Source of the DNA: a virus
Taxonomy: Duplodnaviria > Heunggongvirae > Uroviricota > Caudoviricetes
DNA: 14,865 nucleotides
Reading direction: 5' to 3' (one strand)
IMG/VR virus record: IMGVR_UViG_3300022073_000076
The position numbers were made by a program, and so were the translations under genes. Positions 8,257 through 13,544 of the stretch are shown here, piece by piece. The notes under the pieces were generated by a model. That model ran no database searches, had not been told where the DNA came from, and was given only the letters and a program-made list of their open reading frames with translations. Within the stretch, counting starts at the first letter, position 1. Each line of letters begins with the position of its first letter.

Positions 8257-9009
8257 ATGAACCTTGAAGCCTTACCAAAATATTACTCCCCAAAATCTCC
8301 AAAATTGAGCGATGACGCTCCAGCGACAGGCACCGGTTGTTTAACAATTACGGATGTAATGGCAGCGCAGGGGATGGTGCAGTCGAAAGCACCACTTGGG
8401 TTGGCCTTATTTCTGGCAAAAGTTGGTGTTCAGGACCCTCAGTTTGCGATTGAAGGCCTGCTAAATTACGCGATGGCACTGGATAACCCGACATTGAACA
8501 AATTGAGTGAAGAAATCCGGTTACAGATTATTCCTTACCTCGTGAGTTTTGCCTTTGCTGATTACTCCAGGTCTGCGGCAAGTAAGGCTCGCTGTGAGCA
8601 TTGTTCAGGTACGGGATTTTATAATGTATTGCGCGAAGTGGTGAAACACTACAGACGCGGGGAATCTGTAATCAAGGAAGAATGGGTGAAGGAACTATGT
8701 CAGCATTGCCATGGTAAGGGCGAAGCCAGCACAGCGTGCAGAGGGTGTAAGGGTAAAGGGATTGTTCTGGATGAAAAAAGAACCCGGTTTCATGGCGTAC
8801 CGGTATATAAGATTTGTGGGCGTTGTAATGGAAACCGGTTTAGTCGTTTACCGACCACGCTGGCACGACGTCATGTCCAGAAGCTGGTACCAGACCTGAC
8901 CGATTATCAGTGGTATAAGGGGTATGCGGACGTCATTGGTAAACTGGTAACAAAGTGCTGGCAGGAAGAAGCATACGCGGAAGCGCAATTGAGGAAGGTG
9001 ACGAGATAA
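8257..9009 (+). CDS. quuQ: QuuQ, 250-aa Q-family late-gene antiterminator with Cys-rich zinc-binding motifs
   Basis: ORF 8227..9009 (+). Preferred start is the ATG at 8257 (MNLEALPKYYSPKS..), preceded by GGAGAACGAGC. Motifs CEHCSGTG, CQHCHGKG, CRGCKGKG and CGRCNG are typical of lambdoid Q proteins. Confidence 0.85.
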   Translation: MNLEALPKYYSPKSPKLSDDAPATGTGCLTITDVMAAQGMVQSKAPLGLALFLAKVGVQDPQFAIEGLLNYAMALDNPTLNKLSEEIRLQIIPYLVSFAFADYSRSAASKARCEHCSGTGFYNVLREVVKHYRRGESVIKEEWVKELCQHCHGKGEASTACRGCKGKGIVLDEKRTRFHGVPVYKICGRCNGNRFSRLPTTLARRHVQKLVPDLTDYQWYKGYADVIGKLVTKCWQEEAYAEAQLRKVTR

Positions 9010-9770: not shown

Positions 9771-9800
9771 GTTAATGATTGCGTCGGTTTGAAGAACAGA
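9771..9800 (+). promoter_or_regulatory. Putative cspB promoter -10 element, transcription start and cold-box-like element at the 5' end of a ~160-nt 5' UTR
   Basis: GCGTTAATGATTGCGTCGGTTTGAAGAACAGAC resembles the cspA -10/start/cold-box arrangement as I recall it (GCTTAATGCACATCAACGGTTTGACGTACAGAC). It lies ~160 nt upstream of the cspB ATG. Confidence 0.4.
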
Positions 9801-9943
9801 CGATATACGAAGTAGTTTACTAAAGCAGTTCTCATTTCAGGTGTTATTCACTTATTCCTTCTTTGAGTCTCTCCAATTAAGTACGAAGTCGTTTCTGTTA
9901 TGCAAACCATTTATGCCGAAAGGCTCAAGTTAAGGAATGTAGA

Positions 9944-10159
9944 ATGTCAAATAAAATGACTGGTTTAGTAAAATGGTTTAACGCAGATAAAGGTTTTGGC
10001 TTTATTTCTCCTGTTGATGGTAGTAAAGATGTGTTTGTGCATTTTTCTGCGATTCAGAATGATAATTATCGAACCTTATTTGAAGGTCAAAAGGTTACCT
10101 TCTCTATAGAGAGTGGTGCTAAAGGTCCTGCAGCAGCAAATGTCATCATTACTGATTAA
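9944..10159 (+). CDS. cspB: CspB, 71-aa cold-shock protein
   Basis: ORF 9944..10159 (+): [74 protein letters not shown]1/RNP2 motifs KGFGFI and VFVHF. AAGGAATG-type Shine-Dalgarno. Confidence 0.95.
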
Positions 10160-10440
10160 AATTCATCGCTCGTCTGTATACGATAACGAAGAAGGCTGAT
10201 GCCTGAGTAGAGATACGGACAGAGTAGTGAATATTGGATCTCTTTAATAAAAAGTAAGGAGGTCCAATACATGAAACAATGGCTAGCATATTTGGCAAAA
10301 TCTTAATCAGGAAAAGTATGCTAACCATTGTGGTGAAGTGCAGGTTTGCTGCATGAATAGTTTTACAGCAGAAGCTAACTGCTGGCATGGCAAAACAAAG
10401 TGCGTAAGTGGATGACTCCCACAAAAAGCACCACAATCTC

Positions 10441-10522: not shown

Positions 10523-10693
10523 TCAGGCTACAGCTTTAAGATTTGTCTGGAATACTTTGTTGCAATGAGGGCAGATCAAAAGGGCACCTTTTTGTACTCT
10601 TGAAAAACTGTGTTCTGACTCTTGGGTGCAGTTTGGGCAGGAACATTTAACGAGATAATTACGGCGTGATTTTGAGTTTTTACGTTCTGACAT
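10523..10693 (-). CDS. ynfU: 56-aa small zinc-ribbon protein (two CxxC pairs), probably YnfU
   Basis: Internal start of ORF 10523..10744 (-): MSERKNSKSRRNYLVKCSCPNCTQESEHSFSRVQKGALLICPHCNKVFQTNLKAVA. AGGAAA 6 nt upstream of the ATG at 10691-10693. The name is from memory and is uncertain. Confidence 0.6.
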   Translation of the reverse strand: MSERKNSKSRRNYLVKCSCPNCTQESEHSFSRVQKGALLICPHCNKVFQTNLKAVA

Positions 10694-12673: not shown

Positions 12674-12700
12674 GTTAATGGTGTTCTGGTTTGTTACAAA
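12674..12700 (+). promoter_or_regulatory. Putative cspI promoter -10/start region, paralogous to the cspB promoter motif
   Basis: CATGCGTTAATGGTGTTCTGGTTTG (12669-12693) shares ATGCGTTAATG..GGTTTG with the cspB upstream region (9768-9789). It lies ~140 nt upstream of the cspI ATG, consistent with a long 5' UTR. Confidence 0.35.
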
Positions 12701-12830
12701 TTTATCTGAAGCAGTCATTGTTATAATTTTATTATTTGTACCTCTTGAGATTTCCTTGTTGGTTTTTCTCTCTGATATTTTTTTTCGGACCATTCTGCCC
12801 AAGGGCTAATTTCTTCAAAAGGTAATAATT

Positions 12831-13043
12831 ATGTCTAACAAAATGACTGGTTTAGTGAAATGGTTTAACCCTGAAAAAGGTTTTGGTTTCATCACGCCGA
12901 AAGATGGCAGCAAAGATGTGTTTGTCCATTTCTCAGCAATTCAGAGCAACGATTTCAAAACATTAACTGAGAATCAGGAAGTTGAATTTGGTATTGAGAA
13001 CGGACCTAAAGGTCCTGCCGCTGTTCATGTAGTGGCGCTTTGA
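12831..13043 (+). CDS. cspI: CspI, 70-aa cold-shock protein
   Basis: ORF 12831..13043 (+): [70 protein letters not shown]. Confidence 0.95.
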
Positions 13044-13131
13044 GGTAGACAATATTACAAACCATATTCACTTTAGATGCCCGTGTTGTCATGGTTCCCA
13101 GTATAGAACATCATCTTTTGATGTTTCTGAC

Positions 13132-13242
13132 ATGAATCCTTTCGGGGCAAAATGTATCTTTTGTAAATCAATGATGATTACATTTGATAATATTTCACAA
13201 TACTTAAATGCCAGCCGTCTGTCGTTGGATTTAAAAAAGTGA
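13132..13242 (+). CDS. Small zinc-ribbon-like ORF downstream of cspI (possibly the ynfN locus); start uncertain
   Basis: The open frame from 13033 to the TGA at 13240-13242 encodes ..HIHFRCPCCHGSQYRTSSFDVSDMNPFGAKCIFCKSMMITFDNISQYLNASRLSLDLKK. The only in-frame ATG is at 13132 (36 aa, losing the first CxxC). No ATG/GTG/TTG precedes the first CPCC pair. Confidence 0.35.
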   Translation: MNPFGAKCIFCKSMMITFDNISQYLNASRLSLDLKK

Positions 13243-13247
13243 AAATG

Positions 13248-13270
13248 AAGGCTCCTTCGGGAGCTTTTTT
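13248..13270 (+). terminator. Putative intrinsic terminator after the cspI / zinc-ribbon ORF
   Basis: AAGGCTCC-TTCG-GGAGCTTTTTT hairpin with TTCG loop and U-run. Confidence 0.55.
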
Positions 13271-13352
13271 GCTTGGTGTCTATTCGATGGATACTCACAT
13301 ACTACGGTAACATCATGAAAAAAATCATAGTTTTTTTAACTCTGAACCAGCA

Positions 13353-13544
13353 GTGGTAGTGCCAGCGATGACTGGAGTTAACACCATCATGCGTGAATAT
13401 CCAAATGGCGAAAAAACACACCTTACTGTAATGGCCGCAGGGTTTCCATCTCTGACCGGAGATCATAAAGTCATTTATGTAGCCGCGGATCGACATGTTA
13501 CTTCAGAAGAAATTCTGGAAGCAGCAATAAGGCTCTTGAGTTGA
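13353..13544 (+). CDS. 63-aa small ORF (possibly YnfQ, a cold-shock-associated small protein); precise start uncertain
   Basis: ORF 13353..13544 (+): MVVPAMTGVNTIMREYPNGEKTHLTVMAAGFPSLTGDHKVIYVAADRHVTSEEILEAAIRLLS. Candidate starts: GTG 13353, GTG 13359, ATG 13368, ATG 13389. Preceded by a 14-codon upstream ORF whose stop overlaps GTG 13359. Protein-like composition. Confidence 0.45.
   Translation: MVVPAMTGVNTIMREYPNGEKTHLTVMAAGFPSLTGDHKVIYVAADRHVTSEEILEAAIRLLS

Follow-up and report, generated by a model that had tools for sequence, protein, structure and literature searches.

How is a compact reading frame with two CxxC pairs translated when no canonical start codon lies ahead of the first pair? 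This question is raised by the frame at 13033-13242 (plus strand) of the 14,865-nt stretch of DNA analysed herein (the window), which opens after a TAG at 13030-13032 and closes at a TGA at 13240-13242. The first ATG, GTG, or TTG in this frame is the ATG at 13132, between both Cys pairs; as the list of open reading frames starts the frame at that codon, none of these three codons occurs between 13033 and 13132. The translation and the list of reading frames together bear out the preliminary description of a CPCC...CIFC frame without a canonical start before its first Cys pair, and the two ATT codons at 13054 and 13066 both lie in this frame. The Cys module is a real feature, because its count in the window is well above shuffle chance: a module of the form C..C-(10-35 residues)-C..C was matched five times in the six-frame translation of the whole window (the frame studied here and ynfU account for one match each, and the Q antiterminator gene for three that overlap), compared with a mean of 0.14 and a maximum of 2 over 200 shuffles. 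The Q-antiterminator-like gene ydfT/quuQ (8593-8830, plus strand), with its cluster of CEHC, CQHC, CRGC, and CGRC, is the only multi-CxxC region of the window besides ynfU and ynfQ.

Judged by sequence identity, the frame belongs to a known, annotated E. coli small-protein gene, ynfQ (b4724), a member of the YmcF-like family with 62 codons plus stop at 13054..13242 (plus strand), which is real but not new. Specifically, 13054-13242 is byte-identical to MG1655 ynfQ (NC_000913.3, 1638256-1638444, complementary strand), and the ynfQ coding sequence in two MG1655 records (WP_071524604.1; b4724, YP_009518790.1) maps to the same positions. By megablast, the region was present in 2147 of 5426 complete E. 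coli genomes, and E. coli records label the stretch either "ynfQ: cold-shock protein" or "ymcF: cold shock small protein YmcF", the latter being PGAP naming. The encoded protein, with Met replacing the initiating Ile, matched the Pfam profile PF23641 (YmcF-like) at 111.8 bits (cut-off 27, E=1.7e-32) from end to end, with residues 1-62 on profile positions 1-62 of 62. We make no claim to discovery, because RefSeq, EcoCyc-derived annotation, and Pfam already cover the gene, its ATT start, and its family. In 2017, D'Lima et al. (J Proteome Res 16:3722) reportedly used proteomics to discover YmcF and YnfQ, two microproteins that had lacked annotation and are induced by cold shock, and are said to have mapped the ATT start codons of both by mutagenesis. 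Explicit wording of the ATT start for ynfQ was not found in the literature searched, in which ynfQ is still placed among the uncharacterised y-genes (PMC11551758). The name itself is a source of confusion: the "ynfQ" of VanOrsdel et al. 2018 is another sORF of 37 aa, between ydfJ and ydfK (PMC6001520), which begins MNSILIITSLL and is identical to ynaM, such that text-mining on the name mixes both genes; being a different sORF, it was rejected as evidence for the gene studied here. Taken as a whole, the explanation that we favor, and in which our confidence is high, is that ynfQ is translated from ATT 13054; it would be part of a cold-inducible cspI-ynfQ mRNA, with the AUU probably fed largely by translational coupling.

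The placement of the start codon rests on several observations that converge on the ATT at 13054..13056, which is the start of the RefSeq coding sequence and aligns with position 1 of PF23641. The cspI stop codon precedes this ATT by 10 nt, and the sequence contains a Shine-Dalgarno (SD) element, GAGGU, at 13042..13046, which overlaps the cspI stop UGA (13041-13043) and stands 7 nt before the ATT. For comparison, one genome per species was scanned, which gave 277 loci, and the best 80 of these were joined by the window and two K-12 loci to form a set of 83 copies. Across this set (best 80 of 277 loci plus these three), the codon at the start position, eight before the first Cys, was ATN in every copy: ATT in 58, ATG in 21, and ATC in 4. 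Each of the 25 coupled loci that were aligned has an AGG before the start at a constant register, and the stop-plus-GG motif T(A/G)AGG was seen across genera. In the lineages that use ATG (Klebsiella, Raoultella, Enterobacter, Leclercia, and Silvania), the protein begins at the codon homologous to 13054, and this exact homology fixes the N-terminus of YnfQ. The ATT start is kept in Escherichia, Citrobacter, Kosakonia, Scandinavium, Yokenella, Trabulsiella, and Dickeya. On this comparative evidence, translation of ynfQ begins at ATT 13054. Of the two ATT codons that had been proposed as a non-canonical start, the first thus stands, given its RefSeq annotation and its conservation as ATN in 83 of 83 copies, while the second (13066..13068) is an ordinary codon 5 (Ile) and no start; among the homologues drawn from the best 80 of 277 loci, this codon was ATT in 49, ATC in 15, CTC in 9, and ATA in 1.

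The frame also carries a clear coding signal, including the part that precedes the internal ATG. Among 67 distinct 62-codon sequences (2211 pairs), the mean pN was 0.189 versus a mean pS of 0.774, so that the Cys-containing frame is conserved between homologous loci with less nonsynonymous than synonymous change; the mean pN/pS was 0.24 and was lower still in the N-terminal two thirds. Over codons 2-26, comparison of the window with eleven representative copies gave a pN of about 0.03-0.15 (zero against the near-identical copy L007) and, except against L007, a saturated pS of about 0.7-1.1. Positional entropy over codons 2-47 was 0.38, 0.20, and 1.21 for codon positions 1, 2, and 3, respectively. 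The pattern of substitution in these aligned copies shows that the ynfQ frame, with the codons upstream of the internal ATG included, evolves as protein-coding sequence.

These data bear directly on the suggestion that only a truncated 36-residue form is made from the ATG at 13132..13134, leaving the upstream Cys pair untranslated. That ATG is the sole canonical start codon in the frame, which is the attraction of the idea, yet the Met27 that it encodes is a substitution peculiar to the K-12-type allele, present in just 6 of the 74 full-length copies from the best 80 of 277 set, where K (37 copies) and R (12 copies) are the usual residues; ymcF lacks an ATG there, and no SD-like sequence precedes 13132. 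Further, the part upstream of the ATG is the most conserved of the protein: residues 5-20 head the family in conservation, with synonymous sites saturated and nonsynonymous sites not, and the lone CxxC pair that would be left could not make a four-ligand metal site. We thus consider the truncated product highly improbable as the sole product and discard that part of the preliminary description.

The same holds, with even less room for doubt, for the view of ynfQ as a decaying pseudogene that recently lost its ATG or that arose by a frameshift relative to cspI. The missing canonical start, the location in a cryptic prophage, and the failure of automatic phage-genome annotation to call the gene would all suit such decay, but a decaying gene is hard to reconcile with an ATT kept across genera, a constant length of 62 codons, the low mean pN/pS given above, and the presence of the region in so many complete E. 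coli genomes. Strong purifying selection together with the conservation of ATT across genera refutes a recent start loss or frameshift, and we rate this alternative as extremely improbable. A third possibility is a CspI-YnfQ fusion produced by programmed +1 frameshifting near the cspI stop; indeed, relative to cspI, ynfQ occupies the +1 frame, which in many loci stays open for a long way upstream. In Citrobacter sedlakii (locus L009), a frameshift mutation has even made a single open frame of csp and the ymcF-like gene (...QGPRGPHFKVTVMTPHIHFRCPCC...), and the start position there is ATG. In the window, however, the TAG at 13030-13032 closes the ynfQ frame and leaves three codons for a shift, csp-less lineages encode a free-standing protein that starts with ATG at the same codon, and the 25 aligned coupled loci share no conserved slippery motif. 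The three-codon room and the free-standing protein make a frameshift fusion very unlikely, to the point of being scarcely credible.

With the start at ATT 13054, ynfQ follows cspI (70 aa; 12831..13043, plus strand), the upstream cistron in both the list of reading frames and the RefSeq annotation. A match to the cspA-type mRNA thermoregulator (Rfam RF01766) covers 12685..13070 on the plus strand over model positions 1-428 of 428 (112.8 bits, gathering score 78, E=4e-29), which spans the cspI 5'UTR and reading frame and extends past the ynfQ start codon. Downstream, an intrinsic-terminator hairpin, GGCUCC-UUCG-GGAGCU with a U6 tract, lies at 13247..13274 on the plus strand (fold energy -14.9 kcal/mol, z -2.7) and probably ends the cspI-ynfQ transcript; the terminator pattern scan listed this stem on the minus strand only. 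A comparable hairpin and T-run follow ymcF. From this arrangement, we infer that cspI and ynfQ share a cold-inducible mRNA in which ynfQ comes second. Such a bicistronic mRNA would run from near 12685 to the hairpin at 13247-13274, with a thermosensor of the cspA type in its 5'UTR, and YnfQ would be made as the cspI mRNA accumulates in the cold, its cold induction being inherited from the csp promoter and UTR. Published data are in line with this arrangement: ynfQ tracks cspI in RNA-seq tables (5.9/4.0/42 vs 6.5/4.3/38; PMC11228462), cspG and cspI share their regulation at the RNA level with ymcF and ynfQ (PMC11728337), and ynfQ is listed as "Qin prophage, cold shock induced" (PMC11228462, PMC11728337). 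Beyond the ynfQ stop, the 21-aa gene ynfR (13245-13310, plus strand) starts 3 nt past that codon, and its reading frame includes the hairpin and U-tract at 13247-13274. YnfR-SPA is strongly cold-induced per VanOrsdel et al. (PMC6001520), which would need either read-through of the terminator or translation of the terminated 3' end.

Why should such a gene keep an AUU start? A striking aspect of the sampled loci (best 80 of 277) is that all 49 in which an intact csp reading frame ends 9-10 nt upstream use ATT or ATC, while all 21 ATG loci lack an intact csp reading frame ending just upstream; the loci are phylogenetically non-independent, and the split may represent perhaps four to six independent losses of csp. 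Between the csp stop and the start lay 10 nt in 43 loci, 9 nt in another 6 (best 80 of 277), and 11 nt in Dickeya, where ATT follows an intact csp and fits the pattern. Among the lineages without an intact csp, all that is left upstream in Klebsiella, Raoultella, and Shimwellia pseudoproteus is a remnant of the csp C-terminus, and in Enterobacter, Leclercia, and Silvania, the ymcF-like gene stands directly behind a csp-like promoter/UTR. Citrobacter sedlakii, with its fused csp and ymcF-like frames, is also among the ATG loci. Kluyvera (ATG, no csp) and Atlantibacter (ATT-ATG, with no intact csp reading frame detected upstream) also fit, and Shimwellia blattae has kept its ATT and, since losing csp, has gained an ATG in frame six codons ahead of it. 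Two cases run against coupling: Pseudescherichia keeps ATT without a csp gene upstream, and in Morganella phage IME1369_01 an ATG start stands 9 nt behind an intact csp.

One potential explanation is that the weak AUU of ynfQ would be used mostly by ribosomes coming straight from termination on cspI, through coupling or reinitiation as at thrS-infC. Under coupling, YnfQ would be made in a low and constant proportion to csp translation, and once csp is lost, selection would favor an AUG start. Previous work makes this plausible, since mRNAs with AUU are translated and compete poorly in vitro, especially at low temperature (He et al. 2017, PMC5499595), and about half of second-cistron translation at an infC-type UAA-GGU-AUU junction occurs by reinitiation (Osterman et al. 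2013, PMC3592434). The other half, however, is initiated de novo at such infC-like junctions (PMC3592434), and the AUU of ynfQ could likewise be used by ordinary de novo 30S initiation via the GAGGU element, independently of cspI translation, with the weak codon merely keeping YnfQ low or placing it under IF3 control as in infC. With five matching bases and an ideal 7-nt spacer, the SD could suffice alone, and both Pseudescherichia, with ATT and no upstream csp reading frame, and the Morganella phage, which combines ATG with an intact csp, sit comfortably with de novo initiation. The perfect split in the sampled Enterobacteriaceae (49 ATT/ATC loci with csp and 21 ATG loci without, from the best 80 of 277) does not, and the particular weakness of AUU at low temperature in vitro (PMC5499595) is a poor fit for a cold-induced protein that relied on de novo initiation alone. 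We regard de novo initiation as a serious possibility that falls short of probable.

An SD-sequestering hairpin was also considered and was rejected: a fold of 13015-13100 pairs the SD with downstream sequence at only z=-1.5, and the alignment of 25 diverse coupled loci held no conserved SD-sequestering RNA structure (consensus -0.55 kcal/mol, no covariation). Returning to coupling, the broader evolutionary proposal is that an AUU or AUC start persists only where a csp stop lies 9-11 nt upstream, embedded in the SD, and gives way to AUG, or gains an AUG beside it, wherever csp is lost; this we advance tentatively, at somewhat less than even chances. The correlation between start codon and csp may be the only new element of this analysis; to our knowledge, within our limited coverage of the literature, no prior report has linked the two. 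If coupling is correct, the non-canonical codon would be more than a simple attenuator, in that it would gate YnfQ on ribosome traffic through the csp mRNA as a cold-specific translational relay. Should the correlation hold, it would offer a natural example of why bacteria keep AUU starts, in the cold where AUU is expected to be weakest.

The protein that starts at ATT 13054 retains the hallmarks of its family. The family motif, HFRCPCCHGSQYRTS ... GAKCIFCK, with four candidate metal ligands, is present in the window protein. The residues invariant in 21-29 diverse members (C9, P10, C11, C12, G14, S15, Q16, R18, and S20 around the first knuckle, and G31, A32, K33, I35, F36, C37, and K38 around the second) are all found in YnfQ. 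The putative first zinc knuckle, C9-P-C11-C12, is encoded at 13078..13089 (plus strand), with C9 and C12 invariant and likely ligands, and the second, C34-I-F-C37, at 13153..13164 (plus strand), with C37 invariant and C34 nearly so. Copies from Pseudescherichia and Tenebrionibacter have H or R in place of C11, and given this replacement in a few genera, the metal ligands are probably C9/C12 and C34/C37. An AF2 model (mean pLDDT 73) has short strands at 17-19 and 32-34 and a helix at 44-58, and the best matches in a fold search were zinc ribbons, at non-significant scores. YnfQ is predicted to be a 62-residue protein with a four-Cys zinc-ribbon-like module (C9, C12, C34, and C37) and a C-terminal helix. 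As a low-confidence guess, it might serve as a metal-stabilised small adaptor for RNA, the ribosome, or a larger protein in cold adaptation.

The window is the late part of Qin, a cryptic prophage of E. coli K-12, with its genes in the order dicB ... relBE, hokD, ydfT (Q antiterminator), cspF, cspB, ynfU, essQ, ydfR, rrrQ, rzpQ/rzoQ, cspI, ynfN, gnsB, ydfO, and ynfO. Relatives of YnfQ are encoded by 388 IMG/VR viral contigs; the viral contig scan returned 80 copies, all near-identical, of the Qin type with GAGGT, ATT, and Met27, and hence they add no phage diversity. A search of PHROGs gave no family matching YnfQ. Elsewhere among phages, a csp plus ynfQ-like module is present in phage 2H10 (L083, 1522-1710) and in Morganella phage IME1369_01 (L084, 1189-1329), and the ynfQ-like reading frame is unannotated in both. 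Automatic annotation systematically misses ynfQ-like genes in phages and outside curated E. coli records, and ynfQ is a clean positive control in that a reader of sequence alone can flag a genuine gene with a non-canonical start. Annotations of the same sequence also disagree for the neighboring ynfN, which is a 230-nt frameshifted pseudogene at 13315-13544 (plus strand) in one PGAP record of MG1655 and an intact 51-aa coding sequence in NC_000913.3 (window 13389-13544). In addition, two public MAGs, labelled Veillonella parvula (L004) and Mucilaginibacter sp. (L058), contain E. coli-type cspI-ynfQ or cspG-ymcF sequence, the former being identical to the window, over the stretch examined, in the 30 nt upstream of the start and in the encoded protein; both are most likely mis-binned Enterobacteriaceae contigs.

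How do these features compare with those of known systems? Within the window, a parallel had been drawn with ynfU (b4776; 10523-10693, minus strand; ATG start, PF23499), on the view that a pairing of csp with a zinc-ribbon gene is repeated in the cold-shock locus. YnfU (comparison based on Weaver et al., bioRxiv 10.1101/511675) and YnfQ are alike as small Qin proteins with two CxxC pairs near a csp gene, but YnfU belongs to other Pfam and NCBIfam families, has an ATG start, and is encoded on the opposite strand, convergent to cspB, and is thus not co-transcribed with the csp gene. BLASTP between the two proteins gave no alignment at E<=100, on which basis homology was rejected; the YnfU profile (PF23499 / NCBIfam NF038384) matched neither YnfQ nor YmcF, and YnfQ and YnfU had in common only sub-threshold matches to one generic CxxC NCBIfam model. 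Hence, the apparent repetition does not reflect a duplication. In Shimwellia blattae (L167, 504-671 on the minus strand and 801-998 on the plus strand), a YnfU-family gene lies between a CSD gene and the YmcF-like gene, so that these two unrelated families of small CxxC proteins may share a loose association with csp loci. In the window, the cspB mRNA (9783-10175, plus strand) gives a second, stronger RF01766 match (152.7 bits), and no YmcF-like reading frame follows cspB.

At the level of fold, the top matches of YnfQ were Cys4 zinc ribbons, namely the TFIIE-alpha zinc finger, the MqsA N-terminal domain, and eL43; the matches are non-significant, and a spacing of about 21 residues between its two CxxC knuckles agrees with such a fold. 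The nearest known relative is YmcF (b4723), encoded after cspG in E. coli K-12, which also has 62 residues, is about 65% identical to YnfQ, and belongs to PF23641. Like YnfQ, this paralogue carries the CPCC...CIFC module. Its gene likewise starts with ATT at a distance of 10 nt from a csp stop built into the SD, a terminator hairpin lies downstream, and the parallel extends to the wider gene order (cspG-ymcF-ymcE-gnsA vs cspI-ynfQ-ynfR-ynfN-gnsB). The two differ in that the upstream sequence is TAAGGT in ymcF and TGAGGT in ynfQ, and ymcF has CTC at the position of the second ynfQ ATT and CGA at that of the internal ATG, such that the Met27 of the K-12-type ynfQ allele creates a misleading ATG that ymcF lacks. 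As the prophage (Qin) copy, ynfQ has also diverged from ymcF in the C-terminal 15 residues (pN 0.46).

With regard to initiation, ynfQ recalls infC (IF3), the classic E. coli gene with an AUU start, located just after thrS, where the AUU likewise follows soon after the preceding stop, with a GG directly behind that stop. The ynfQ junction, UGA-GGUAGACAAU-AUU, places AUU close behind the upstream stop, as in infC-type genes. Specifically, the junctions read UAA GGU AUU for infC (PMC3592434) and UGA GGU AGACAAU AUU for ynfQ, with a gap to the stop of 3 nt and 10 nt, respectively, and the proteins are unrelated. Whereas IF3-dependent autoregulation is established for infC, the likeness of ynfQ to it is one of junction sequence.
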